32,070 bases of DNA from an uncultured bacterium (lineage in GTDB: Bacteria; Gemmatimonadota; Gemmatimonadetes; Gemmatimonadales; Gemmatimonadaceae), in contig CAXBQP010000035.1 in assembly GCA_963978095.1 (NCBI GenBank), positions 1 to 32,070 on the forward strand. The letters are read 5' to 3'. Shown here in pieces: positions 2 through 32,069 of this stretch. Position 1 is the first letter of the stretch. The number at the start of each line of letters is the position of its first letter. Made by a program: the position numbers and the translations under genes. The notes beneath the pieces were generated by a model. That model ran no database searches. It saw only the letters and a list, made by a program, of their open reading frames with translations, and was not told the DNA's origin.

Positions 2-406
2 AGCTGGATCAATGTTCGGGCGTGAACCGTTGAATTGCTCCCTGAGCCTGTAGTAGTAGGCGGCCTTGTCATCTGATTCCCCGTACTCGGCTTGCAAGAC
101 CTTAAGTCGCCGATTGACTGCCTCCGGATCGGTCTTTACAGCAGCGAAGGTTGCGATGAGCTGACGGTTGATGTCTCCGAGTATTGCCGAGAAGGGTCGT
201 GTCTCGCGCCGTGCGAGATAGAAGAAAACGGAGCCGCCGCCAACAAAGGGGTCGATGTATTTTCCGTGAAACCGCGGCAGTATTCCGCCGTATCTGGCGA
301 GGAACGGTTGCTTTCCGCCTGCCCATCGAAGGAAGGGTTTCGCGCTGGAAACTCGGCGGACCCACGTGTCCAACTGGTTGTTGAAGGCGGTGTTACTATT
401 TGCCAT
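2..406 (-). CDS. Dam/D12-class N6-adenine DNA methyltransferase, N-terminal part (runs off the left edge; absent from the ORF track)
   Basis: Manual translation from ATG at 406: MANSNTAFNNQLDTWVRRVSSAKPFLRWAGGKQPFL...KYIDPFVGGGSVFFYL...ILGDINRQLI...YYYRLREQFN. It contains the Dam-family KPFLRWAGGK motif, SAM-binding motif I (PFxGGGS) and DIN; no stop before the window edge. Confidence 0.92.
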   Translation of the reverse strand, partial: MANSNTAFNNQLDTWVRRVSSAKPFLRWAGGKQPFLARYGGILPRFHGKYIDPFVGGGSVFFYLARRETRPFSAILGDINRQLIATFAAVKTDPEAVNRRLKVLQAEYGESDDKAAYYYRLREQFNGSRPNIDPA

Positions 407-709: not shown

Positions 710-1957
710 TTAGTACTGCAAGAGGAAGCGCTGCAATTCCCGAGCGTCCTTCGTCTTCGTCAACGCCACCATCATCAATATGCGCGCCTTCTGCGGCGTC
801 AGATGCTGCACCGTCACCTGCGGCGCGAGCGGCGCCTGATCCGCCGCACCCGCTCCAGCAGCACCACCTGCCCCTGCCCCACCGCGTCCGCCTCCGGGGC
901 CGCCAGCAACCGGCGCCCCAGCCCCATCAAACCCACCGACCGCCGTCACGTTATCCCCCGACGGAAATGCCGTCGCCACAACCCCCCCAGCCCGCCGCAA
1001 CGCCAAGTACGGAGCCTGCTCCCCCCGCGAGAACCCAGTCGTCGCCACGACCACGCCAGCCGGCAGCGTATCAAACTTCACCCCCGTCCCCCCCGGATAA
1101 CTGAACGTCAGCTCCACCCGCGGCAACACACTATCCACCCCCGCCAGATCGAACTCGCTCTGACTCCCGTGGCGGCGCGTCGGGGAGAAGAAGAACTCCA
1201 CCCCGCTCCCGCTCACCACGCCGAGCATCCCCATCTCGCCGCCGCTAAACCCGCCCACGCGCTGGTAGTTCTTGCGCACCTCGCGCGCGCTGATGATCCG
1301 GTCGTCCATCACGACCATCACTCCCTTCCCCACCGCACTCGGCGCTGCCGCCGTGCGGACCGCTGCCAGCAGATTGATGGGGCCGTCGGGCGAAAGCCCC
1401 GTCGCCGGATGCTGCGCCCCCGTCACCACCACCGGCTTGTCGCTGCGCACCGTCAGGTACAGGAAGAACGCCGTCTCCTCGAGCCGGTCCGTGCCGTGCG
1501 TCACCACCACGCCGGCCAGATCCTTCCGCTCGCTCAACACCGTGTTGATCCTTCGGCTCAGCGCCACCCACTGCGCCGGCGTGATCGCGGTGCTCGCCAC
1601 GTTCGAGAACTGCTCGCTCTCCACCTCCGCATACCGCGGCAGCTCCGGCACGCTCGCAATGATCGCCTCGGCGCTCAAACTCCCCGCACGATACGCGCCC
1701 GTCGTGCCCGGCTGGTCCTGCGCCCCCGCGATGGTGCCGCCCGTCGCGATCACCAGCACCTTGGGACGGGGCCCAGCCGGGATCTGCAGCGGCACCGGCT
1801 GTGGCGCGCGCGGCGTACTCTGGATGCCGCCACCGATCGCACCCGTGGCCGCGACCGGCGCCGCGCCGGTCGTCACCGCAGGCGGCGAGGCGCATGCGCC
1901 GAGCCAGGCGAGAACGGCCAACGACATCACACACGAACGCACGAACCGTACGGCCAT
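710..1957 (-). CDS. L-asparaginase (type II-like), probable lipoprotein
   Basis: ATGGTIAG and HGTDRLEET catalytic Thr motifs, SDKPVVVTGA, DGPINL. Start placed at MAVRFVRSCVMSLAVLAWLGAC (lipobox-like LGAC). Confidence 0.92.
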   Translation of the reverse strand: MAVRFVRSCVMSLAVLAWLGACASPPAVTTGAAPVAATGAIGGGIQSTPRAPQPVPLQIPAGPRPKVLVIATGGTIAGAQDQPGTTGAYRAGSLSAEAIIASVPELPRYAEVESEQFSNVASTAITPAQWVALSRRINTVLSERKDLAGVVVTHGTDRLEETAFFLYLTVRSDKPVVVTGAQHPATGLSPDGPINLLAAVRTAAAPSAVGKGVMVVMDDRIISAREVRKNYQRVGGFSGGEMGMLGVVSGSGVEFFFSPTRRHGSQSEFDLAGVDSVLPRVELTFSYPGGTGVKFDTLPAGVVVATTGFSRGEQAPYLALRRAGGVVATAFPSGDNVTAVGGFDGAGAPVAGGPGGGRGGAGAGGAAGAGAADQAPLAPQVTVQHLTPQKARILMMVALTKTKDARELQRFLLQY

Positions 1958-2065
1958 CTCGATCGCTCCGGCGGGTGGTATCACGACCATGTCATCTATA
2001 AGATGTGGAACTGCTCGTCCTAATATCCGACGCGCCCACGGCGTCCGCCAGCGTCGCACAATCTC

Positions 2066-2094
2066 TTGCGCGCCGCGTCAAGCGGGTGTATACT
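2066..2094 (+). promoter_or_regulatory. sigma70-type promoter for the riboswitch/AAA operon transcript
   Basis: TTGCGC (2066-2071), 17 bp spacer, TATACT (2089-2094). The predicted start site (~2100-2101) coincides with the first base of riboswitch 1. Confidence 0.75.
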
Positions 2095-2100
2095 ACGGGA

Positions 2101-2190
2101 GCATCAAGATGAGGGACGACCCTCGCCAACCTGCCCGCCCGGGTAAGGTGGATCCCGAAAGGGGATGCGGCCTCCGGCAATCTCACGGGC
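2101..2190 (+). ncRNA. SAM-I/IV-type riboswitch aptamer, copy 1
   Basis: P1 GCAUC(2101-2105)/GAUGC(2164-2168); J1/2 AAGA; P2 GAGGG/CCCUC; P3 core GCCAACCU...AAGGUGG; P4 CCC-GAAA-GGG; P5 GCC-UCC-GGC then AA; loop GCCC (2137-2140) complementary to GGGC (2187-2190), as in PK-2. Matches SAM-I clan core nucleotides and SAM-I/IV architecture by eye. Confidence 0.85.
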
Positions 2191-2202
2191 TGCGCGAGAC
2201 TC

Positions 2203-2240
2203 ACCCTCCTCTGCATGCCAGATGGAGGGTTTTTCTTTTT
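2203..2240 (+). terminator. Intrinsic terminator, expression platform of riboswitch 1
   Basis: ACCCTCC-TCTG-catgc-CAGA-t-GGAGGGT hairpin followed by TTTTCTTTTT. Confidence 0.85.
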
Positions 2241-2278
2241 CCGCCACGGTCGCGGCCCGCGACCGACACGTTCCACCA

Positions 2279-2393
2279 GCATCGCGAGTGAGGCGAACGC
2301 CTCCGCCAACCTCCCCGACCCGGGAAAGGTGGTCCCACCTCCCAAGGTGGCATGCGGCGCCCGGTACTTCCACCGGACGCAACCGAGCGGGTC
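2279..2393 (+). ncRNA. SAM-I/IV-type riboswitch aptamer, copy 2
   Basis: P1 GCAU(2279-2282)/AUGC(2352-2355); J1/2 GCGAG; P2 GAGGCG/CGCCUC; P3 core GCCAACCU...AAGGUGG; P4 CCACCU/AGGUGG; P5 GCGcCCGGU/ACCGGaCGC then AA; loop GACCC (2317-2321) complementary to GGGUC (2389-2393), as in PK-2. Confidence 0.8.
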
Positions 2394-2414
2394 TCGGCAT
2401 GGGAAATCGTTCGT

Positions 2415-2438
2415 GCTCCTCGCCCCACCCAGAGGAGT
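2415..2438 (+). promoter_or_regulatory. Shine-Dalgarno-sequestering hairpin (candidate translational platform of riboswitch 2)
   Basis: GCTCCTC (2415-2421) is complementary to GAGGAGT (2432-2438), which contains the SD of the ATG at 2444. Confidence 0.6.
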
Positions 2439-2443
2439 AGCCC

Positions 2444-3856
2444 ATGACCGCCCCGCACAACATCTTCGCCCGCCTCGGACTCCACGGCTTCGAGCCCCTG
2501 GCTCCAGTCCTCCTCGCCGCGCTCGTGACCGAGGAACCCCTCCTTCTCCTCGGACCGCACGGCACGGCCAAGTCGCTCCTGCTCACGCGCACCGCCGCCG
2601 CCCTCGAGCTCAGCGCCCGGCATTACAACGCGAGTCTGCTCAACTTCGACGACCTCGTCGGATTCCCGATCCCCGGCAAGGACGGCTCCCTCGACTATGC
2701 CAAGACCCCGGCCGCGATCTGGGGGGCCGGTGCCGTCATCTTCGACGAGCTCTCCCGCTGCCGCCCCGAGATCCAGAACAAGCTCTTCCCCATCATCCAC
2801 GAGCGGAAAGTGCAGGGACTTCCACTCGAGGGACTGCGCTACCGCTGGGCCGCCATGAATCCCCCGCTCACCGACGAGAAGTCTCCGACGTACATCGGCA
2901 CCGAGCCGCTCGATGTCGCGCTCGCGGACCGCTTCGCGTTCGTGGTCACCATGCCGGACTGGAGCGCGCTCAGCGAGGCGCAGCAGATCGCCGTGATCCG
3001 CGCCACCGACCTGCCACTCGATCCAGGCATCGGTGAGGAGTTGCGCGCGGTGATCGATCAAGTACGTCGCGTCCGAGCGGCCATTGCGGAGCCCGTCGAA
3101 GCCGCGCTGGCGGACTACACGCGCACGGTCTGCGCGTTGGTCGCGCAGAGCGACATCACCCTCAGTCCGCGGCGCCGCGGCATCATCCTGCGGAACACCC
3201 TCGCCGTCATCGCCGCGGCGGCGGTGATTGCGCCGGATCTGGATATGGCGCGCTGCGCGCTGCTCACACTGCGCTCGTCACTGCCACATCTCGCCTCTGG
3301 CGAGGCGATCGACGATCGGAAGCTCGTGGCGTGCCACCGCGAGGCGTGGGCGGCGCATCCGTGCGCCGAGCTCCGCGAGATCGTCCTCCTGGCCGATCCG
3401 CTCGCGCGCTTCGAGGCCGCGATCGCCGCGCCGACCATCCCGTCGCGTGACTTCTCGTCGATCGTCGCTGACTGTCTCGCACGGATGCGCAGCGGCGAAC
3501 GCTACGCCTCGGCCGTGCACTTGTACGAGAGCAACGCGGCGAGCCGCCTGAACGTCGCCATCGCGGATCAGACCGCTCGCGCATTCAAGCAGATCATGGA
3601 GAATGAGGAACATGGTTTGCACGATGGACTTCAGCGTCATCAGGAGTACGCCGAACCCCTGGGGTATTTCCGCAAGCACGGACACGTCATCGAGCTTCGC
3701 GACGTCCTGTTCCTCGACCCCGATCAGCCGATCGACCTGCCGCAACAATGCGGGGCTGTCGGTCCTGAAGGCAAAGCACTGTTTCGCGAGGACCTGGTGT
3801 CGTTCATCACGGATTTTCGCGCGACCCGTGCGCGGCTCGCGGGGAGGGCCGCATGA
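2444..3856 (+). CDS. MoxR-type AAA+ ATPase
   Basis: Walker A GPHGTAKS, Walker B VIFDELSR, QNKL, sensor AAMNP, arginine finger LDVALADRF, later SPRR. Good SD (AGAGGAG). Confidence 0.9.
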   Translation: MTAPHNIFARLGLHGFEPLAPVLLAALVTEEPLLLLGPHGTAKSLLLTRTAAALELSARHYNASLLNFDDLVGFPIPGKDGSLDYAKTPAAIWGAGAVIFDELSRCRPEIQNKLFPIIHERKVQGLPLEGLRYRWAAMNPPLTDEKSPTYIGTEPLDVALADRFAFVVTMPDWSALSEAQQIAVIRATDLPLDPGIGEELRAVIDQVRRVRAAIAEPVEAALADYTRTVCALVAQSDITLSPRRRGIILRNTLAVIAAAAVIAPDLDMARCALLTLRSSLPHLASGEAIDDRKLVACHREAWAAHPCAELREIVLLADPLARFEAAIAAPTIPSRDFSSIVADCLARMRSGERYASAVHLYESNAASRLNVAIADQTARAFKQIMENEEHGLHDGLQRHQEYAEPLGYFRKHGHVIELRDVLFLDPDQPIDLPQQCGAVGPEGKALFREDLVSFITDFRATRARLAGRAA

Positions 3857-4257
3857 CGACCGCTTCGAACCTCGGGATCGACTGGCGGATCGTGCGGTTC
3901 AGACTGGACGATCGATTCGTCGGACTTTCGCCGGCCGAGTTGCTCGCCGCGCTCGGTCTCTCCGCCGGCGAGGATGCGGAGGCCTCGCTCCAGCGCATCA
4001 TCGAGCGGGTCGCAGCACAACTCACCCTTCCGGATGTCTGTCCCGTCGCGGATTGGACCAGGGCCATCCCCCCTCGTGACGAATTCGTGGAACCGCTCAG
4101 CGCGATCGCGGTCATGGCCAAGTCCTCGCCGCATGTGTGGGTGCGCAGCAAGCTCCCGTTGGTGCACGCGGCGAACGAACGTCATTCCGTGTCGCTCTTT
4201 CTCACCCCAGCGCAACGCCAGCGCTTCCGGCGGAGGGTGCCTCGTGTCACTGCTTGA
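3853..4257 (+). CDS. Hypothetical protein (134 aa) coupled to the AAA+ gene
   Basis: ATGA start/stop overlap with the ATPase, GGGAGG upstream, fills the gap to the next gene. No recognisable motif. Confidence 0.65.
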   Translation: MTTASNLGIDWRIVRFRLDDRFVGLSPAELLAALGLSAGEDAEASLQRIIERVAAQLTLPDVCPVADWTRAIPPRDEFVEPLSAIAVMAKSSPHVWVRSKLPLVHAANERHSVSLFLTPAQRQRFRRRVPRVTA

Positions 4258-5623
4258 ACGGATCCTGAACTGTTTTCCCACCGGCCACTACGCGATCACG
4301 GCGTTCCTGCGCGTGGTGGACATCGTCGAAAGTCGTGACGTCCCGACGGCCGCCATCGAGAACAAGATCTCGCCGCGCATGCTCATCAACCCGGATTTCG
4401 TCGAGCAGCACGCCGAGACGCCGGAGAAATTGCTGATGCTGGTGATGCACGAATTGCATCACATGATGCTCGGGCACACGGTCTCCCACCCTCGGATCAC
4501 GCCGTTCGACAACTTCGTCTTCGATGCGGTCATCAATGGCGTGCTCTGCCAGATGTTTCCGACGCCAGCCTTCACCTCGCTCCTGACCGACTACTACTCG
4601 GAGTCGTTTCCCGAGTGTCTGTTACGCCCCCCTCCGGACTGGCCGGAACAGGGCGGCGTCGCCTTGGGGATCACCGCGTTGCGCGATCCGCGTCAGGTCA
4701 AGGCGGCGGCGGCCGCGCATCGCGGACTGTACTCGGAGGCTGGCTATTCCTACGCGGAGCTCTACGTGTTGCTCTCGTCCTTCGGTCTGGGTTCCGCGCC
4801 GGTCGCGGGGCGACTCCTCGGCGATCACGCGAGCGAGACCGAGCTGGTCCTGGAGAATTCACTGGCGGAGATCGCCGCGGATTTCGGCTCGACCTTCGCT
4901 GAAGAGTTCCCGCACATCTGGACGGACGAGGTGTACATGCGGTACGAGAGACGCGGGACGGCGATGGCTCCGGTCGAACGGATCGTCAAACCGCGGACGA
5001 ACCACCGGAACCGGGCAGCGCTCCGGCGTCTCTTGTCGCGGATCGCACGAGGTGGACGAGGCGGCACCCAGCGGATCATGGACTGGACGGCCCGACCGGT
5101 GGAGCAGGCGATGCCGACCATGGACCGTCGTGCCTCGGTGCAGCGCCTGCTCGGACACCAACCGCTGCTCCATTGGGACGAACGCGTGGCACGGCGCGCG
5201 AACTGTCCCGGCGAGCGGGTGCACGTGTATTTCGATGTTTCGGGCAGCGTCTGGCATCTGCTCGAGGAACTCTACGGCGCCCTATTGGACGTGGAGGCGG
5301 ATGTGCACCCTGTCGTGCATCTGTTCTCGACGCAGGTCTACGATATGCCGATCGAGCGGTTCCGTCGGGGGGCCATGCGCACTTCGCTCGGGACCGAGAT
5401 CACCTGCGTCGCTCGCCATATGGCCAAGTTCGACGTGCGCCGAGCACTGATCGTGACGGACGGCTTCACAGATTCCCCGAGCGGTCGCGATCTGGCCGTC
5501 ATGCGCCGCGCAACCCTCGGCGTCGCCGTCATCAAGGGCGAGCAATGCCAACGTGACTTGGAAAAGGTCGTGGACTTCTGGGGGTTCCTGGAGGTCGATC
5601 CCCCCGTCGCGGCGAGCGCGTGA
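4244..5623 (+). CDS. HExxH metallopeptidase-like N-domain plus vWA (MIDAS) domain protein (DUF2201-like architecture)
   Basis: GTG start at 4244 after GGAGGG; MLINPDFV...VMHELHHMMLGH zincin motif; NFVFDAVIN; C-terminal YFDVSGS, GT and LIVTDG MIDAS residues. Confidence 0.85.
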   Translation: MSLLERILNCFPTGHYAITAFLRVVDIVESRDVPTAAIENKISPRMLINPDFVEQHAETPEKLLMLVMHELHHMMLGHTVSHPRITPFDNFVFDAVINGVLCQMFPTPAFTSLLTDYYSESFPECLLRPPPDWPEQGGVALGITALRDPRQVKAAAAAHRGLYSEAGYSYAELYVLLSSFGLGSAPVAGRLLGDHASETELVLENSLAEIAADFGSTFAEEFPHIWTDEVYMRYERRGTAMAPVERIVKPRTNHRNRAALRRLLSRIARGGRGGTQRIMDWTARPVEQAMPTMDRRASVQRLLGHQPLLHWDERVARRANCPGERVHVYFDVSGSVWHLLEELYGALLDVEADVHPVVHLFSTQVYDMPIERFRRGAMRTSLGTEITCVARHMAKFDVRRALIVTDGFTDSPSGRDLAVMRRATLGVAVIKGEQCQRDLEKVVDFWGFLEVDPPVAASA

Positions 5624-5696
5624 ACGACGATGACGGACCCTATGGATGTTCGCGCTGTCGCCAACACCCTCCCCAACAACTTGTGGACGCATCAAA

Positions 5697-5722
5697 AAAT
5701 ATTATGATATTGGATAATATTT
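5697..5722. promoter_or_regulatory. AT-rich inverted repeat abutting the start codon of the HTH-like ORF (putative operator/promoter)
   Basis: AAATATTAT (5697-5705), 8 bp spacer, ATAATATTT (5714-5722), then ATG at 5723. Contains TATGAT and GATAAT -10-like hexamers. Confidence 0.55.
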
Positions 5723-6163
5723 ATGAAAATCATCGTGAGCACCGCTGCCCTAGCGCTCGGGGTCTCCCCCACTCGGCTCCGTCTCTTCCTCTCCCGACAC
5801 GGCCCCCACTTGGCCGGAGAACCGTCGGCACGCCGCCAAGGGCGCCGCCGCCCCATCCCGGAGCAGGCGCTCGAACCACTCCTCCTGGCCTTCCTCCTCG
5901 CCCGCGACCTCCGGATCCCGGATGGACCCGCCCTTCAGCTCGCCGAACGACTGCTCAAGGCCGACTCCGCTGCCAGCCCACAGAAGTCCGTCGGAGCCGG
6001 TCCAGCACCCGCCACCATCGAACTCTCTCCGATCCTCCGACTCTCCGCCGACCTCCCCGCCCTCCGCCTCCACCTCCGCCACGCCATCGCCGACGCCCTC
6101 GAAGCCGCGCCCCCTCCCCCGCCCCGCGGCCGGCCGCGTCGTGGCGCTATAAGGACCCGTTGA
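5723..6163 (+). CDS. Small hypothetical protein with HTH/MerR-like N-terminus
   Basis: VSTAALALGVSPTRLRLFL resembles a helix-turn-helix, followed by RQGRRR; C-terminal PPRGRPRR is AT-hook-like. Confidence 0.55.
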   Translation: MKIIVSTAALALGVSPTRLRLFLSRHGPHLAGEPSARRQGRRRPIPEQALEPLLLAFLLARDLRIPDGPALQLAERLLKADSAASPQKSVGAGPAPATIELSPILRLSADLPALRLHLRHAIADALEAAPPPPPRGRPRRGAIRTR

Positions 6164-7178
6164 CCCGCGCTTCGAGCGCCGCCAGTCGATCCAGAAGATC
6201 CTCGAAGCTTGGGGGCTCCCCGAAGAACATCTCCCGCATCTTTCGGTAATCCTCGCCAAGCGCGCTCACGCGCTCCGGTGCCGGGAGCAAGCGAAGCGTT
6301 CCTGATCTGGCGGTGTGGTAGTTCGCCCAGCCGGAAGCGAAGAACAGGGACTTATTCTCGACGACCGTTTCCAAGAGGTCCCTTCGGTCCAAGGCGGCAC
6401 TCCCCACCGCTGATTCGGCGAGCACCGCCATGTCGAAATAGTGTCGCGCGAGCCGTGCCGGCAGCGCCTTCTCCTTGGGGCGGTGATATTCGGCGTGGAG
6501 AATCGTGGCTTTCTCCCAGAAGGTGCGCTCGGCGGCAAGCGTTCGAACGCCACCCACCGACTCGCGCACCGTGTCCGGAAATGCGTCTGCGCAGTACGAG
6601 GTGATCTCGCGCGACTCGACGGGCCACGGCTCTGAGCGGGCACCGAGCTCGAGCCTGACGGTCGGCATGATATAGTCGGCGTTGCCATACACCTCCGCGC
6701 TGAACGCCCGCGGGTAGGCGAATAGGAGTGTCGCCTCCGACATCCCGTCAACGCGCAGGTCAACGCTCTCCCCGATGAGGCGGTGCGACATCGCCGCGGC
6801 AATCTCCCGGAGGAACGGACCCGCCGCCCACTCTCGCAACGCGGGGGCGATTGCGTCGATGATCCGCCGCGCCTCGGCGCTGGATGGTGCGGTGCGGGGG
6901 TCAAGAGGATGCTCGCTGATGACGGTCCTAGCGACCGACAGGTCGATGTCTTCGGAGAAGCGGTCGACTAGGCGATAGACTTTCGAGAGGCTCGTTCCTC
7001 CCTTGAAAACCAAGACATCGCGATAGGCGCTCTGGAAGACGAGGTCCAGGGCCCAGCACACCCAGTAGTCCTTTTCGATGGCGATCGGGGAGGTGATTCC
7101 CGTTCTCGCTGCCGTTTCGGTGAAGAGTTCGGCACGGTCCTCTGCGCGCCATTGCGCCACGGACGTCAGCTTGCCCAC
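6147..7178 (-). CDS. abiEii: AbiEii-family nucleotidyltransferase toxin (type IV TA)
   Basis: IEKDYWV, LVFKGGTSLSKVY, DRFSEDIDL, ERTFWEKATILH and RHYFD motifs. GTG start directly follows the antitoxin stop. Confidence 0.92.
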   Translation of the reverse strand: MGKLTSVAQWRAEDRAELFTETAARTGITSPIAIEKDYWVCWALDLVFQSAYRDVLVFKGGTSLSKVYRLVDRFSEDIDLSVARTVISEHPLDPRTAPSSAEARRIIDAIAPALREWAAGPFLREIAAAMSHRLIGESVDLRVDGMSEATLLFAYPRAFSAEVYGNADYIMPTVRLELGARSEPWPVESREITSYCADAFPDTVRESVGGVRTLAAERTFWEKATILHAEYHRPKEKALPARLARHYFDMAVLAESAVGSAALDRRDLLETVVENKSLFFASGWANYHTARSGTLRLLPAPERVSALGEDYRKMREMFFGEPPSFEDLLDRLAALEARVNGSL

Positions 7179-7787
7179 TCACCCCTCCGTCGCGATTCGG
7201 CGAATCGCCGAGTGGAGCCAACCGGGGGCATGGCGGATCATCCCGAGCAGCGCGCGCTTGTCGGCCGGTCGCAGCGTTGCGGCGAGCCGATGGATCACGG
7301 TGTCATCGACGCCGCCCGTTCCCAAGTACGAAAGTGCGCGAATCACATCGTCGGCCACACCGCTCGGACGGCCCAGCTTCGAAGGCGCGCGATGGACAAG
7401 GCGCATGGTCCTGCCCTGCACCGTGACGGTCCGCGATCGACCGGTCGTCTCGAGCACCGTACGCATCGGCACTTGCGTGCTCACGCCGAGCGCGTTCGCC
7501 ACCTGGGCTGCTGACGACTTGAGCGTGGCGCCGCTCCTGCGAGCGAGTGCCCGCTCCACCGCTTTCGGACTCGGAGCCAAGACCCCCAGTCGAGCGCTGG
7601 TCTTGGGATAGTCGTAGAGCCCCCGTCCGATGCGGCGTAGCTGGCCGGCGCGGACGAGGCGACTCAACGCTTGATCGACTGATGCTCGCGAAGCTAGATC
7701 AACGAAGTCGCGCGGTGTACACACGTGTCCTCGTCCGAATCGACGAATACGCGCAAGTATTTTATCGACAACGCTTTGGTAGGTCAT
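7179..7787 (-). CDS. abiEi: AbiEi-family antitoxin / transcriptional regulator (DUF6088-like)
   Basis: Winged-HTH N-terminus SVDQALSRLVRAGQLRRIGRGLYDYP and ANALGVSTQVP; lies immediately upstream of abiEii. Start at MTYQ (7787). Confidence 0.88.
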   Translation of the reverse strand: MTYQSVVDKILARIRRFGRGHVCTPRDFVDLASRASVDQALSRLVRAGQLRRIGRGLYDYPKTSARLGVLAPSPKAVERALARRSGATLKSSAAQVANALGVSTQVPMRTVLETTGRSRTVTVQGRTMRLVHRAPSKLGRPSGVADDVIRALSYLGTGGVDDTVIHRLAATLRPADKRALLGMIRHAPGWLHSAIRRIATEG

Positions 7788-7801
7788 AATGCCGTGGTTT
7801 T

Positions 7802-7831
7802 TGTCAGATAAATATATGCGAATATCTGACA
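7802..7831. promoter_or_regulatory. Inverted-repeat operator upstream of abiEi
   Basis: TGTCAGATA (7802-7810), 12 bp spacer, TATCTGACA (7823-7831), 14 bp upstream of the start codon. AbiEi proteins are known to autoregulate through inverted repeats. Confidence 0.7.
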
Positions 7832-7880
7832 TTCGCAACCCTGGTTCGCGCGCAGATCGGCATCGAGACCCCACGAAGCC

Positions 7881-7911
7881 AAAGCGGGGCGCCCCTTTCG
7901 GAGCGCCCCGC
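7881..7911 (-). terminator. Intrinsic terminator downstream of cspA
   Basis: GCGGGGCGC/GCGCCCCGC stem (7884-7911) followed by a short U-run on the minus strand. Confidence 0.65.
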
Positions 7912-7945
7912 CTCTTGGTGCGTGGTTCAGTGACTTGAGCTCAGC

Positions 7946-8158
7946 TCAGCCGCCGACCTTCGTGACGTTCTCAGCCGCCGGGCCCTTCTGGCCCTGCACG
8001 ATGTCGAACTCCACCGCGTCACCCTCGGCCAGGCTCTTGAAGCCCGAGCCCTGGATGGCGCTGTAGTGCACGAAGCAATCCTTCTGCCCGTTGTCGGGGG
8101 TGATGAAGCCGAACCCCTTCGCGTCGTTGAACCACTTCACCTTTCCGGTCGTACGCAT
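7946..8158 (-). CDS. cspA: Cold-shock protein
   Basis: [16 protein letters not shown] (RNP1), CFVHYSAI (RNP2), [17 protein letters not shown] before the ATG at 8158. Confidence 0.97.
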
Positions 8159-8983: not shown

Positions 8984-10201
8984 GTGGTCTTCACGTCCCG
9001 ACGCAAGACAGTCACCGCGATGGTCGGTCAGGTGCCGGTGGGTTCGGCGCACCCGATCGTCGTGCAATCCATGACGAACACGGACACCGCCGATCCGGCG
9101 AGCACCGCCGCGCAGATCGCCGCCCTCGCGACGGCGGGTTCGCAGTTGGTGCGCATCACCGTCAACAACGACGAGGCCGCCGCGGCCGTGCCCGAGATCG
9201 TGCAGCGCTGCGCCGACCTCGGGTGCACGGTGCCGATCATCGGCGACTTCCACTACAACGGGCATCTGTTGCTGGTGAAGTACCCCGAGACGGCGCGCGC
9301 GCTGGCCAAGTACCGCATCAATCCCGGGAACGTGGGGGCCAAGCGCCGCGACGACAACTTCCGCACGATCGTGCAGGTCGCGGTCGACCACGACAAGCCG
9401 GTGCGGATCGGCGTGAACTGGGGATCGCTCGATCAGGACCTGCTGACCTCCATGATGGACGCGAATGCCGCGCTGGCGCAGCCGGCTGACGCGAAGGACG
9501 TCTACATGGAAGCGATGCTCGAGTCGGCGCTCCGGTCAGCGGCGCTCGCCGAAGAGGTGGGGCTCGCGCATGACCGGATCATCATCTCGGCCAAGATCTC
9601 GCAGGTCCAGGATCTGCTCGACTGCTATCGCCGGCTCGCGGTGCGCTGCGACTATCCGTTGCACCTCGGCCTCACCGAAGCGGGACTCGGCACCAAAGGG
9701 GTGGTCGCCACGACCGCCGCGCTCTCGCTCGTCTTGGCCGACGGGATCGGCGACACGATCCGCGTGTCGCTCACGCCGCGACCGGGCGGCGATCGCACGG
9801 AAGAGGTGTTCGTCGCGCAACAGGTGTTGCAGTCCCTCGGCTTGCGATCCTTCACACCGCAGGTGACGGCGTGCCCCGGCTGTGGTCGGACGACGTCCAC
9901 CTTCTTTCAGAAGATGGCCGAGGATATCCAGGGGTATCTGCGCGAGCAGATGCCCGTGTGGCGCGGGGTGCATCCCGGCGTGGAAGAAATGAAGGTGGCC
10001 GTGATGGGATGCGTGGTGAATGGTCCCGGCGAGTCGAAACACGCGAACATCGGGATCTCGCTCCCCGGGACGTTCGAGGAGCCCAAAGCGCCGGTGTACG
10101 TGGACGGTGCGTTGCGCGTCACGCTCAAGGGGGACCACATCGTGCCGGAGTTCCTGGAGATCCTGAACGGCTACGTGGAGCAGCGGTATCCGAAGGCGTG
10201 A
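8984..10201 (+). CDS. ispG: (E)-4-hydroxy-3-methylbut-2-enyl-diphosphate synthase
   Basis: [64 protein letters not shown] start after AAGGAG. Confidence 0.97.
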
Positions 10202-30764: not shown

Positions 30765-32069
30765 TCACGGAGTCGCGTGCTGCTTCTCGAATCTGTCGTA
30801 GAGAGTTCTGAGCTTGGGAACTGAGATTCGGAACTGACTACGGCGGTGCGTCTTCGGCTTCGCGCTGGAGGCGTTTTCGACTTTTATTCCCGGATCGTAG
30901 ACTATCGCGCCCTCAGACACGGCTTTCAGGAACTTGGTGAAGTCCGTCCCCTCTCCCATCCAACACACCGCTCCGAATCGATATTTCTGTGGTGAAGCCT
31001 CGAGCAGAGAAGGCACGTACACGGCCTGCGCGTGCTTCCTGTTCCAATGGCCGAGCAGTGTTGCGAATGGCCAACCTGCTGCCACCTCGTCTCGTTCGTC
31101 CCGCAGGACGAGGCCACCGGATGCGTCCGTGATCTTCTCAAGCTCGTGATCGAAGCCCTCAAGGCGAAGCGTCAGTCGAGTACGGGCATCTCTGCGGTTG
31201 ATCTTGTGGGCCCCACCGAAGTTCAGTCGGTCGACCGTTCCGTCCAGCGCTGCGTACCCATAGCTTCGCACGAACGGAATCAGCCCTTCCTCAACGTAGA
31301 CGCCTGTCGTCGGCTCGGGAGTGAACAGGGTCACCAAGCTCTTTGCAGCGTAGGTCGTGAAGTTCCGGGCGCCATACTGCTTCAGCTCCCACCCGAGGTA
31401 GTCGGGTTCGGCCCGACCATTCGGAACGACTCCGAACTGCGCTTCCAATGTGTATCCGCCACAGTTTCTGGAATTGCAGGGCTTGGTGATTCCTCCCGGC
31501 TCCAGTTTCACCGAGTCGATCCAGCCCCTACTCGAGATCTCATGCAACTTCGCCAGCACCTCGCGCTTCGGATCCGAAGTGCCCAAAGGAATCTCATGAA
31601 GCACTCCTCGATCCGACACCGCCAAGGCCCGCTCGAGTTCTCGTGCGGCAGGCGACGTGGGGGCAATCACCAACGCGACGACCGTTCTATCGCGCCGAAT
31701 TCCGAAAAATAGGATCCGCCCTGCCACGCGGGCTCTGTCGTTCATGAGATCCGCTGGCGCCCCAGCCGAACCACGCAAGAAGCCGGAGAAGCGCACCTCG
31801 GGATACTGAGGATAGAGAATGAGCTTGGCATGCGGCGCAAGCGACAGCTCCCCATTCTCGCGCAACCACGACAGTGCCATGGGCGCATGGAGAACCTGTC
31901 TGCCGTGGCCGCTTGTCTCAACGACCGGGGCTCCGGAAGGGATCAGGTTCGTCGGAGCGAAGCTTCCGGCGAGATATACCTGATTCTTCGAATTGTCATT
32001 CTCGGCAAGGCGCTTCACCAGAAGCTTGGTCGCCCCGACCCTGATGAACGCTTCCCTGATATCGGATAG
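30765..32069 (-). CDS. MvaI/BcnI-family restriction endonuclease (5' end beyond the window)
   Basis: GYTLEAQFGVVPNGRAEPDYLGWELK (PD-(D/E)xK), VTLFTPEP, HWNRKH, YDPGIK, RRSQFRI; N-terminal NDNSKNQVYL. The frame stays open to the window end (LSDIREAFIRVGATKLLVK). Confidence 0.88.
   Translation of the reverse strand, partial: LSDIREAFIRVGATKLLVKRLAENDNSKNQVYLAGSFAPTNLIPSGAPVVETSGHGRQVLHAPMALSWLRENGELSLAPHAKLILYPQYPEVRFSGFLRGSAGAPADLMNDRARVAGRILFFGIRRDRTVVALVIAPTSPAARELERALAVSDRGVLHEIPLGTSDPKREVLAKLHEISSRGWIDSVKLEPGGITKPCNSRNCGGYTLEAQFGVVPNGRAEPDYLGWELKQYGARNFTTYAAKSLVTLFTPEPTTGVYVEEGLIPFVRSYGYAALDGTVDRLNFGGAHKINRRDARTRLTLRLEGFDHELEKITDASGGLVLRDERDEVAAGWPFATLLGHWNRKHAQAVYVPSLLEASPQKYRFGAVCWMGEGTDFTKFLKAVSEGAIVYDPGIKVENASSAKPKTHRRSQFRISVPKLRTLYDRFEKQHATP

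Follow-up and report, generated by a model that had tools for sequence, protein, structure and literature searches.

Client-specific pairs of a MoxR-class AAA+ ATPase and a vWA protein include CbbQ-CbbO (Rubisco activase), CoxD-CoxE and CobS-CobT, and to our knowledge a paralogue of MetK (SAM synthetase) is not a client of any MoxR protein. Tandem riboswitches are known from SAM-II/SAM-V in 'Candidatus Pelagibacter ubique' and from the tandem glycine aptamers. Iron insertion into NO reductase is described for NorQ-NorD in the available text of two papers (PMC9976466, PMC13036017), and met genes preceded by S-boxes with a hairpin and poly(T) in that of another (PMC545781). In the available part of the paper on vWA-MoxR systems (Kaur, Burroughs, Iyer and Aravind, 2020, eLife; PMC7159879), 'S-adenosylmethionine synthetase' is not mentioned, and no paper was found that describes the operon reported here.

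The locus lies in a window (the whole stretch of 32,070 nt that was analysed) from an uncultured member of the Gemmatimonadaceae, where two predicted SAM riboswitches precede genes for an AAA+ ATPase, a small protein and a zincin/vWA protein (Table 1). It is probably the reduced copy, gained by horizontal transfer, of an operon that is widespread but has so far gone undescribed and that would respond to low SAM by the mechanism proposed below. The copy is regarded as reduced because it has no MetK-like gene and because the N-terminus conserved in the family is missing from its small ORF.

Table 1. Features of the locus and of its neighbours, with positions in the window
Feature	Position	Strand	Basis or remark
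D12 methylase fragment	2-406	-	fragment only
Asparaginase gene	710-2059	-	between D12 methylase fragment and cassette
Promoter-like site	2066-2094	+	TTGCGC (2066-2071), 17 nt, TATACT (2089-2094), read from sequence
SAM-I/IV aptamer 1 (predicted)	2096-2194	+	RF01725, 46.8 bits (cut-off 41.1), E 8.9e-05, model positions 1-99
Intrinsic terminator, riboswitch 1 (predicted)	2203-2240	+	11-bp hairpin, one bulge (2203-2230), then UUUUUCUUUUU
SAM-I/IV aptamer 2 (predicted)	2274-2396	+	RF01725, 43.9 bits (cut-off 41.1), E 3.8e-04, model positions 1-99
SD-covering hairpin (predicted)	2414-2439	+	minimum-free-energy fold; SD GAGGAG (2432-2437), 6 nt 5' of ATG 2444
AAA_5/MoxR-class AAA+ ATPase, 470 aa (P0001)	2444-3856	+	Pfam AAA_5, 37.8 bits (cut-off 22), E 2.4e-09
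Small family-specific protein, 134 aa (P0002)	3853-4257	+	tblastn relatives in 28 loci; 4-nt overlap with AAA stop
HExxH zincin-like N-domain + vWA/MIDAS C-domain protein, 459 aa	4244-5623	+	alignment A1; Pfam; AlphaFold; Foldseek
Empty slot, site of MetK-like gene in relatives	5624-6146		no MetK-like remnant
AbiEii/AbiEi pair	6147-7874	-	directly 3' of cassette

Results

When the whole window was scanned with cmscan, exactly two matches exceeded the Rfam gathering score, both of them full-length to RF01725, and these two are also the sole RF01725 matches in the whole 2.98-Mb genome. The two SAM-I/IV-like aptamers that the earlier note had read from the letters were thus borne out by the covariance model. 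The terminator behind aptamer 1 is backed by the minimum-free-energy fold and by a hairpin/T-run detector; a strict consensus terminator scan made no call there. In the fold, its 5' arm can alternatively pair with the 5' half of aptamer 1 until the 3' arm has been made. The terminator is near-identical in the related genome G022, where a UCUCCU/AGGAGA hairpin is the counterpart of the SD-covering hairpin, and the fold of aptamer 2 offered no clear SAM-dependent alternative to the latter. An OFF-type design of aptamer 1 is supported by these predicted structures; given the terminator hairpin and its U-run, OFF logic is therefore most likely, with the operon presumably silent at normal SAM and induced when SAM falls. 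We infer that both predicted aptamers would bind SAM.

The 'clean sigma70 promoter' proposed before exists as sequence elements, but 'clean' is too strong, as these agree with 8 of 12 consensus positions and were not picked up by a consensus scan. TTGCGC, 17 nt and TATTAT precede the homologous leader of G022 in the same layout. Nucleotide similarity to G022 starts at about this site, which is the probable left edge of a transferred module.

All three overlapping genes proposed in the earlier note are real, although the third starts at about 4244 and not at 3974. The AAA+ ATPase, an assignment borne out by the Pfam match above cut-off and by readable Walker A (GPHGTAKS) and Walker B (VIFDE) motifs, had 404 relatives in a search of genome contigs; it also has a weak match to the bpMoxR model (26.0 bits, under the cut-off of 27). 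No match to the small protein was found in Pfam, PDB sequences or Atlas. Its C-terminal block is conserved (alignment A3), whereas the near-invariant N-terminal motif LLHNMSAPPK..Y.GL is absent, and by this alignment the protein in the window is N-terminally shortened compared with its family. In 26 of 28 loci, a start codon for the small ORF falls at the 4 nt that it shares with the end of the AAA gene, a count for which the script chose the start closest to the overlap position.

For the zincin/vWA protein, alignment with 32 homologues places the start at GTG 4244; the start at 3974 was rejected, as it adds about 90 R/S/P-rich residues that are read out of frame. The HExxH and vWA identity is confirmed by the residues invariant in alignment A1, namely H69, E70 and H73 of HExxH, plus H78, and D331, S333, S335, T384 and D406 of the MIDAS. 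Across the family, Pfam detects DUF2201_N in 33 of 33 members and VWA_CoxE in 29 of 33. The AlphaFold model (pLDDT 80) gave the MIDAS domain of Rea1/MDN1 and the VWA domain of NorD as best Foldseek matches, and the linker of the protein in the window differs in part from the consensus of the family (alignment A1).

The related loci, 80 in all, span at least ten phyla. A vWA gene follows the AAA gene in 62 of them, and 17 of the 18 loci without one stop within 1.1 kb past the AAA match. The ORF after the vWA gene carries all three MetK Pfam domains; this MetK paralogue ends the operon in 43 of the 49 related loci that leave 700 nt or more for it, and also in L063, and is missing after vWA in L032, L039, L049, L077 and L079. 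The MetK-like protein retains GHPDK, DQ, PDGK, GDxGLxGxK and GGGAxSGKD..DR, its profile matches solved MATs over the full length (E about 1e-61), it shares about 28% identity with housekeeping MetK, and its gene is a second copy besides canonical metK in all five genomes checked. A DUF3293 gene sometimes opens the operon. As read from these sequences, the full operon is SAM riboswitch(es), DUF3293 in some cases, AAA_5/MoxR-class ATPase, small protein, zincin/vWA(MIDAS) and divergent MetK paralogue.

Conservation of the riboswitch in homologous loci had been suggested for checking, and SAM-I/IV or SAM-I aptamers above the cut-off were found at the same position, upstream and on the same strand, in 40 of the 80 loci, 9 of these with two. 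Mixed-class tandems, SAM-I/IV followed by SAM-I, occur in L047, L054 and L056, and a hairpin and T-run follow 27 of the 49 aptamers that accompany the cassette in relatives. The remaining 40 loci have no riboswitch above the cut-off, with upstream sequence missing in only 4; in further loci, sub-threshold SAM-II or SAM-V lies at the same position (8 of 14 matches). SAM control is, by this comparison, ancestral to a metK-containing operon, since the operons of relatives carry both the MetK paralogue and riboswitches at the same position. The AAA genes of relatives are not unlinked insertions near met genes, an outcome that the earlier note had considered, but an integral, translationally coupled part of this operon. 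Its premise of a SAM riboswitch over an operon without a SAM gene proved peculiar to the copy studied here; given the MetK paralogue in relatives, SAM control has an ordinary feedback rationale.

Within the window, the statement that no Met/Cys/SAM gene follows holds: a MetK-like remnant was found neither in the slot by tblastn nor between 5401 and 8000 by full-sensitivity hmmsearch. A listed ORF at 5620-6249 was rejected as a gene, its translation being P/R-rich junk. The vWA stop is spanned by contigs from runs X1 (5470-5948) and X4 (5193-5769), and one X1 contig departs from the window just past this stop, at 5630, which points to strain variation at the junction. The MetK-like gene of G022 is broken by a frame change, so the cassette in this genus may be decaying.

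RF01725 was present in 2 of 41 genomes (the window genome, G000, and G022, i.e. one of its 40 relatives), a close AAA homologue was found in the same two only, and a sample of 150 other genomes of the phylum yielded no RF01725 match. The host's metF-metH has a SAM-II-like element instead of RF01725. From 2099 onward, the leader of G022 shares 76% identity with that of the window across 965 nt, which take in the 5' end of the AAA gene, and the flank upstream of the leader is not common to both genomes. With riboswitches and cassette confined to these two genomes among the relatives, the module is foreign to this host and was probably acquired horizontally.

As to the neighbours named in the earlier note, the AbiE pair does lie directly downstream, whereas the Dam-type methylase is present as a D12 fragment only, with the asparaginase gene intervening. 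The local defence 'island' consists of AbiE and this distant methylase fragment and nothing else, and the remainder of the window holds housekeeping genes (his operon, ispG, murB). Patchy spread within the genus and frequent restriction, Abi or transposase neighbours are commoner for accessory or conflict genes than for core metabolism.

Discussion

In the mechanism that we propose, aptamer 1 would bind SAM at normal SAM levels and the terminator would halt transcription, while any read-through would meet a second check at aptamer 2 and the hairpin that masks the ribosome-binding site; serial switches of this kind would shut expression off more tightly. A fall in SAM would allow expression of the translationally coupled genes, which in the full operon would yield a spare SAM synthetase plus an AAA+/vWA pair dedicated to remodelling. 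If CbbQ-CbbO, NorQ-NorD and CoxD-CoxE are a guide, the pair would serve one client, for which gene order and this analogy suggest the MetK-like enzyme, and could assemble it, reactivate it or process it proteolytically by means of the zincin domain. The proposed client gene is missing from the locus under study itself, which counts against this mechanism, as do the half of the related loci with no riboswitch above the cut-off, the fold of aptamer 2, the broken MetK-like gene of G022 and the patchy distribution with its restriction, Abi or transposase neighbours. We infer that the copy in the window would be either decaying or acting on another target, perhaps the housekeeping MetK.

The same switches could instead serve a phage-defence or counter-counter-defence 'RNA guard', in which a SAM lyase or an inhibitor of MetK from a phage would collapse SAM and open the riboswitches, whereupon the AAA+/vWA-zincin proteins would kill the cell or attack the phage factor, or, in the full form, an inhibitor-insensitive MetK would restore SAM and keep SAM-dependent restriction or BREX working. 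The sporadic, horizontally transferred distribution, the AbiE pair adjoining the window cassette, the transposase genes adjoining L006 and L063, and the dual action of phage T3 SAMase, which according to the available text of bioRxiv 10.1101/2023.02.27.530186 cleaves SAM and also inhibits its synthesis, are consistent with such a role. When the two nearest ORFs on each side were surveyed at 33 related loci, strong PADLOC matches (HEC-09, PLD_Helicase, capP, type II RM, MkoA-like, type I REase+AbiLi, type IV REase) flanked 7, but most flanks, those of 26 loci, were housekeeping or unknown, both being raw counts with no control set. Moreover, none of the cassette proteins is hit by a PADLOC model, housekeeping genes make up the rest of the window, the cassette was not found in 50,697 phage and 72,556 plasmid records, a transcriptional switch would require ongoing host transcription during infection, and a SAM riboswitch over a metK paralogue already has an ordinary metabolic rationale. 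A guard is not favoured; it has little support and we regard it as unlikely.

Two further readings concern the three-gene form, which could be the working minimal version of a SAM/methionine-starvation module independent of the MetK-like gene, its AAA+-driven zincin/vWA protein degrading or remodelling cellular proteins at low SAM. Three intact ORFs with Walker A/B, HExxH and MIDAS, and the five loci that likewise lack a MetK-like gene after vWA, agree with this, but 43 of 49 loci have the MetK-like gene together with the trio, the small protein here has also lost its conserved N-terminus, and the divergence of the vWA linker would fit erosion better than a form that is minimal by design; we find this version unlikely. 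Similarly unlikely is a non-functional remnant, acquired, deprived of its fourth gene (perhaps on arrival of AbiE) and now drifting, as the traceless loss of the MetK-like gene, the shortened small ORF, the frame change in G022 and the X1 divergence at 5630 might suggest; against it, the three ORFs run through 1,063 codons in total without stop or frameshift, all family-invariant residues are kept, both aptamers still exceed the Rfam cut-off, and the leader is well conserved with respect to G022.

Comparison with known systems

The reduced low-SAM response operon, as we prefer to read the locus, resembles CbbQ-CbbO, NorQ-NorD, CoxD-CoxE and CobS-CobT in the placement of an AAA_5-type ATPase gene beside that of a vWA protein with a complete MIDAS; the top structural matches of the model include the NorD VWA domain of the NorQD complex (9qhe_G, 9qh6_G), and the full-form operon includes one enzyme gene, a possible client. 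It differs from these pairs in the N-terminal HExxH zincin-like domain (DUF2201_N-like) of the vWA protein, in the family-specific small protein always encoded between the AAA and vWA genes, and in the predicted SAM riboswitch control of the whole unit, with the client gene absent from the window. As in the vWA-MoxR ternary conflict systems, to the extent that the available text of PMC7159879 describes them, a MoxR-type ATPase is combined with vWA, spreads patchily and horizontally and often lies in variable regions; the third components given there (beta-propeller, iSTAND, FtsH-type) were not seen here, where a small novel protein and a MetK paralogue take the place of partners.

As in S-box/SAM-I clan control, an aptamer and terminator precede an operon whose versions in relatives encode a homologue of SAM synthetase, an arrangement suited to negative feedback. 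In contrast to the classical S-box, the metK concerned is a diverged second copy that shares about 28% identity with the housekeeping one and closes an operon of four or five genes, none of the others being known to act in sulfur metabolism; the riboswitch class moves with the cassette and is alien to the phylum of the host, and the cassette in the window has no metK after it. Like the known tandems, two complete aptamers for the same predicted ligand share one leader, as they also do in G022 and in 9 of the 40 riboswitch-bearing relatives. Unlike them, the aptamer classes differ within some relatives (L047, L054, L056), and each aptamer appears with its own type of platform, a terminator and then an SD-covering hairpin.

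Results

The leader contains two SAM-I/IV aptamers with different predicted expression platforms

When the 32-kb window was scanned with the Rfam covariance models, exactly two RNA matches over gathering were found, both of them full-length SAM-I/IV aptamers. The earlier note had read two SAM-I/IV-like aptamers here from sequence alone, and both scored above the RF01725 gathering score of 41.1 bits. It had also named the SAM-I/IV, SAM and SAM-IV models for a scan; a genome-wide search of the assembly (2.98 Mb, 91% complete) with RF01725 recovered only aptamers 1 and 2, and the SAM-I and SAM-IV models gave no match in the same assembly. The features of the cassette and its neighbourhood are collected in the table.

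Features of the cassette and of its surroundings in the window
Feature	Position	Strand	Remarks
D12 adenine methylase fragment	2-406	-	Near the window edge, in a lower-GC stretch (0.556)
Asparaginase gene	Upstream of the cassette		710-2059 (-), between the methylase fragment and the cassette
Promoter-like site	2066-2094	+	TTGCGC, 17 nt, TATACT; read from sequence
SAM-I/IV aptamer 1	2096-2194	+	RF01725, 46.8 bits, model positions 1-99
Aptamer-1 terminator hairpin	2203-2230	+	11 bp, then UUUUUCUUUUU (U-run); fold
SAM-I/IV aptamer 2	2274-2396	+	RF01725, 43.9 bits, model positions 1-99
Shine-Dalgarno-covering hairpin	2414-2439	+	Covers GAGGAG, 6 nt before ATG 2444; fold
AAA_5/MoxR-class AAA+ ATPase, 470 aa	2444-3856	+	Pfam PF07728
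Small protein (ORF2), 134 aa	3853-4257	+	4-nt overlap with the AAA stop; no family match
Zincin-like (HExxH) and vWA/MIDAS protein, 459 aa	GTG 4244 onward	+	32 homologues align from there
AbiEii/AbiEi pair	6147-7874	-	After the cassette, opposite strand
MvaI/BcnI-family restriction endonuclease gene	30765-32018	-	Far end of the window

The promoter-like site matched 8 of 12 consensus positions and was not called by a consensus scan; the same layout also precedes the homologous leader of G022, a congeneric genome with a homologous cassette. In a fold of the nascent transcript, nucleotides 2205-2217, in the 5' arm of the hairpin behind aptamer 1, paired alternatively with aptamer 1 itself, in its 5' half. 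Aptamer 1, the hairpin and its U-run have the predicted anatomy of a SAM-OFF terminator (transcription attenuation) switch. The hairpin behind aptamer 2 folded whether P1 pairing was allowed or not, and no SAM toggle was revealed by the fold.

The three encoded proteins

The AAA protein matched AAA_5 with 37.8 bits (cut-off 22), and its Walker A (GPHGTAKS) and Walker B (VIFDE) motifs were intact. The cut-off of 27 bits for bpMoxR (PF20030), the MoxR of MoxR-vWA-beta-propeller ternary conflict systems, was reached neither by the window protein (26.0 bits) nor by its G022 homologue (23.4 bits). NCBIfam gave far sub-threshold matches only (GvpN, RavA and ovoA_Nterm), and a search of PDB sequences with the AAA protein gave nothing beyond a weak match to Midasin.

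The earlier note had described the third gene as coding for a HExxH and vWA protein that starts at 3974. The identity of the HExxH and MIDAS parts was upheld, and the start had to be moved to the GTG codon, as the first ~90 residues of the longer reading are out of frame. In an alignment of 33 sequences, the MIDAS residues D331, S333, S335, T384 and D406 (DxSxS, T, D) were invariant, as were the HExxH motif and a further (third) His. Foldseek with the AlphaFold model (pLDDT 80) returned MIDAS/VWA domains with probability 1.00, the top structural matches being the MIDAS domains of Rea1/MDN1 and the VWA domain of NorD from the NorQD complex. Pfam VWA_CoxE matched 29 of the 33 family members, with the window protein itself unmatched at E <= 0.05. 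DUF2201_N (PF13203) scored 15.4 bits with the window protein (E 0.014; cut-off 23.2 bits) and was found in 33/33 members at E <= 0.05, all of the matches being weak (best 1.2e-05); the N-domain is a putative metallopeptidase that resembles DUF2201_N. A PDB sequence search with the window vWA protein returned nothing, and of the 34 pattern matches in a metagenome scan with this protein 0 were confirmed.

The small protein of the window is devoid of the ~40-residue N-terminus, bearing a near-invariant LLHNMSAPPK..Y.GL, that is common to 27 relatives, and a variant of which is retained in G022. No match was obtained when its profile was searched against PDB sequences, and the ESM Atlas gave no usable match with a full-length small protein of the family as the query.

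In other lineages the operon mostly continues into a MetK-like gene

Relatives of the AAA protein were collected from contigs with one genome per species (404 in total), and the best 80 of the 404 loci were studied. According to the record titles, these best 80 belong to Acidobacteriota, Alpha-, Beta- and Gammaproteobacteria, Chloroflexota, Nitrospirota, Binatota, Planctomycetota, Bacteroidota, Myxococcota, Verrucomicrobiota and Armatimonadota. The gene order AAA-small ORF-zincin/vWA was conserved across the loci; the vWA gene followed the AAA gene in 62 of the 80, and 17 of the remaining 18 end at most 1.1 kb past the AAA match. In 26 of 28 loci, the small ORF has a start codon that overlaps the AAA stop by 4 nt; the script behind this count took the start closest to that position.

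The ORF directly 3' of the vWA gene contained all three Pfam domains of MetK, the SAM synthetase, with modest scores. This MetK-like fourth gene was found in 43 of the 49 loci in which 700 nt or more remain behind the vWA gene, and also in L063, behind a shortened vWA match; it was missing in L032, L039, L049, L077 and L079. Its product retains the MetK catalytic motifs, and its profile matched solved methionine adenosyltransferases over the full length (E ~1e-61); identity to the housekeeping MetK was ~28%. All of the carrier genomes checked (5/5) also have a canonical metK, which makes this gene a second copy. A complex prediction for the vWA protein of L015 and its MetK-like neighbour scored 0.00, which speaks neither for nor against.

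A DUF3293 gene separates the riboswitch from the AAA gene in L006, L008, L015, L020, L022, L031, L037, L038, L043, L053 and L055. L010 has one at the start of its contig; a PDB sequence search with DUF3293 returned nothing. Some loci have small conserved ORFs without Pfam match ahead of the AAA gene, behind the riboswitch or the DUF3293 gene, one type of ~69-87 aa (L024:483-689, L025:4774-4980, L055:3998-4258) and another of ~105 aa (L012:4555-4866, L032:4523-4840), and both may be optional members of the operon. In L025, the cassette is flanked by two additional DUF3293 genes in reverse orientation, one of which adjoins an NT5C-type 5'-nucleotidase gene (L025:2925-3398, 3398-3856 and 9398-9850, all -).

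SAM riboswitches of more than one class precede the operon

In half of the loci (40/80), gathering-level scans detected a SAM-I/IV or SAM-I aptamer in the orientation of the AAA gene, 45-1430 nt ahead of its start. Two aptamers were present in nine loci, three of which (L047, L054 and L056) have SAM-I/IV followed by SAM-I. The SAM-II (SAM_alpha) element of L011 also passed the cut-off, at a distance, however, of 3.5 kb upstream. Four of the 40 unmatched loci have <300 nt of upstream sequence. When 11 of the 40 were re-scanned at E <= 0.5, 8 of the 14 matches belonged to SAM riboswitch families on the + strand, with sub-threshold matches just before the AAA gene to SAM-I/IV in L048 (33.3 bits), to SAM-II in L007 (27.5 bits) and L045 (26.4 bits) and to SAM-V in L010 (32.6 bits). 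A third riboswitch class (SAM-II/V) on the operon is thus probable, and only probable because these scores lie below the curated cut-offs. A hairpin followed by a T-run was found by a crude detector behind 27 of 49 aptamers, a frequency consistent with OFF switches. As judged from these comparisons, the link between riboswitch and operon is ancestral and crosses riboswitch classes.

Three SAM-II-like elements occur within 3 kb in L045. Sub-threshold matches to Bp2_287 (RF02424, a Burkholderia sRNA) were observed antisense to SAM-II-like matches (L045:1896-2024 and 3973-4092; L007:1-99), and this sRNA family may partly represent leaders of the SAM-II-like kind, taken in the wrong orientation.

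The module is foreign to its host

Among 40 relatives of the window's genome, 24 of them in the same genus, SAM-I/IV was found in G022 only, again as a tandem pair, and a close AAA homologue (59% identity) was likewise confined to G022. A sample of 150 further genomes from across the phylum, searched under stricter filters, gave no RF01725 match. The window and G022 share 76% of nucleotides over 965 nt from 2099, and the upstream flank is not common to both. As the similarity starts at the leader and the flank is unshared, the promoter, the switch pair and the genes would travel together as a unit. On this sequence evidence, the module came into this organism from outside. Base composition over 2-8 kb gave no clear island signal, and the other ~24 kb of the window is housekeeping (ispG, the his operon, murB, peptidases) apart from the MvaI/BcnI-type endonuclease gene.

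The metF-metH operon of the host (contig 41) is preceded by a SAM-II-like element of 33.5 bits (cut-off 36). Another SAM-II-like element (RF00521, 35.3 bits, cut-off 36) was seen at G000:C27:15356-15430 (-), the locus L088 of the window's own genome, directly upstream of panB; this gene, for ketopantoate hydroxymethyltransferase, is an unusual SAM riboswitch target.

The copy in the window is reduced

In the window, the AAA, small-protein and zincin/vWA genes follow a SAM riboswitch in the order of the full operon and are translationally coupled, with the MetK-like gene absent. No MetK-like remnant was found after the vWA gene by tblastn at E 10, nor any MetK-like sequence in 5401-8000 by a full-sensitivity profile search (hmmsearch --max); the sole MetK-like sequence in the 91%-complete assembly is the housekeeping metK on contig 13. 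An ORF at 5620-6249 (209 aa), considered as a fourth overlapping gene, was rejected as a P/R-rich junk translation with no relatives among the loci. The vWA stop was bridged by independent DNA contigs from two sequencing runs (X1, 5470-5948; X4, 5193-5769). One X1 contig tracks the window to 5630, 7 bases past the vWA stop, and continues with 226 nt of unrelated sequence; this divergence right after 5630 suggests that a co-occurring strain carries different sequence downstream of the cassette, and thus strain variation at the junction.

The three ORFs of the window and all of the family-invariant residues are intact. In G022, the MetK-like gene is present and frame-split into two ORFs, 871-1824 and 818-1033 (L090 = G022:C128, ~818-1824, -), and the split near residue 290 is either frameshift and decay or an assembly error. 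The window copy could be undergoing erosion, could use the housekeeping MetK as its target or could serve some other purpose. It adds to the family a reduced, tandem-switch form in which the sensor was kept although the metK-like cargo is gone.

Discussion

The simplest account of these data places the SAM control on an operon that has a back-up SAM synthetase among its cargo. At low SAM, termination would be lifted, and in the window a second, translational block would be lifted as well, so that the operon would be expressed.

The earlier note had put forward a defence guard, in which the riboswitch would lead a response to SAM depletion by phage; this is possible and we do not favour it. The patchy, transferred distribution of the cassette and the AbiE neighbour in the window are in its favour, as are strong PADLOC matches close to the cassette, within two ORFs on either flank, in 7 of 33 related loci (L004, L006, L039, L040, L043, L060 and L065), a raw count made without control genes and excluding the near-duplicates L057, L075 and L080. 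However, the flanks are mostly ordinary genes. Moreover, no defence model of PADLOC-DB 2.0 matched any cassette protein, whether the AAA protein, ORF2 or the vWA protein was searched at E <= 0.01 (0 families) or one MetK-like and one DUF3293 protein at E <= 1e-10 (0 families), and the cassette was not found in the phage or plasmid collections searched.

In its most developed version, this idea makes the operon a mobile guard of the SAM pool with its own RNA sensor, which would fire when a phage SAM lyase or a MetK inhibitor drains SAM. In the full form, a divergent, inhibitor-insensitive MetK would restore SAM, the AAA+/vWA-zincin machine would strip or degrade the phage factor or inactivated MetK polymers, and SAM-dependent restriction and BREX would be kept working; reduced copies beside AbiE, as in the window, would keep only the remodelling/protease arm. 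We regard this scheme as improbable; if true, an immune response set off by a riboswitch and a host answer to SAM depletion by phage would both have their first known example.

The reading as a SAM-feedback operon with a back-up synthetase raises a question of its own. The regulation of sulfur and methionine genes by SAM riboswitches is textbook knowledge. In this case, a single operon, present in at least 10 phyla, is the meeting point of at least two classes that pass the Rfam cut-off (SAM-I/IV and SAM-I), with SAM-II/V as a probable addition, and three of its four to five proteins are not known to be linked to SAM. What a MoxR-class ATPase, a zincin/vWA adaptor and a small protein do with a second SAM synthetase at low SAM is the question, and the answer would be either a new client class for the MoxR/vWA "activase" family or a SAM-triggered conflict system. 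As the module carries its own sensor between phyla, it illustrates in nature how a riboswitch and its cargo can be portable as a unit.

The literature searches turned up no connection between a SAM riboswitch and a MoxR/vWA operon and no account of this MetK paralogue, although an early remark could be missed; passages of PMC3766115 and PMC545781 make no mention of the operon. Client-type MoxR/vWA systems and SAM-feedback operons are each known as kinds, and no description of their combination was found. The AAA_5 ATPase and the MIDAS-vWA protein of the operon resemble the client-specific pairs CbbQ-CbbO, NorQ-NorD and CoxD-CoxE, and from this analogy, together with the fixed gene linkage, the MetK-like enzyme would be the most plausible client of the AAA/vWA pair.
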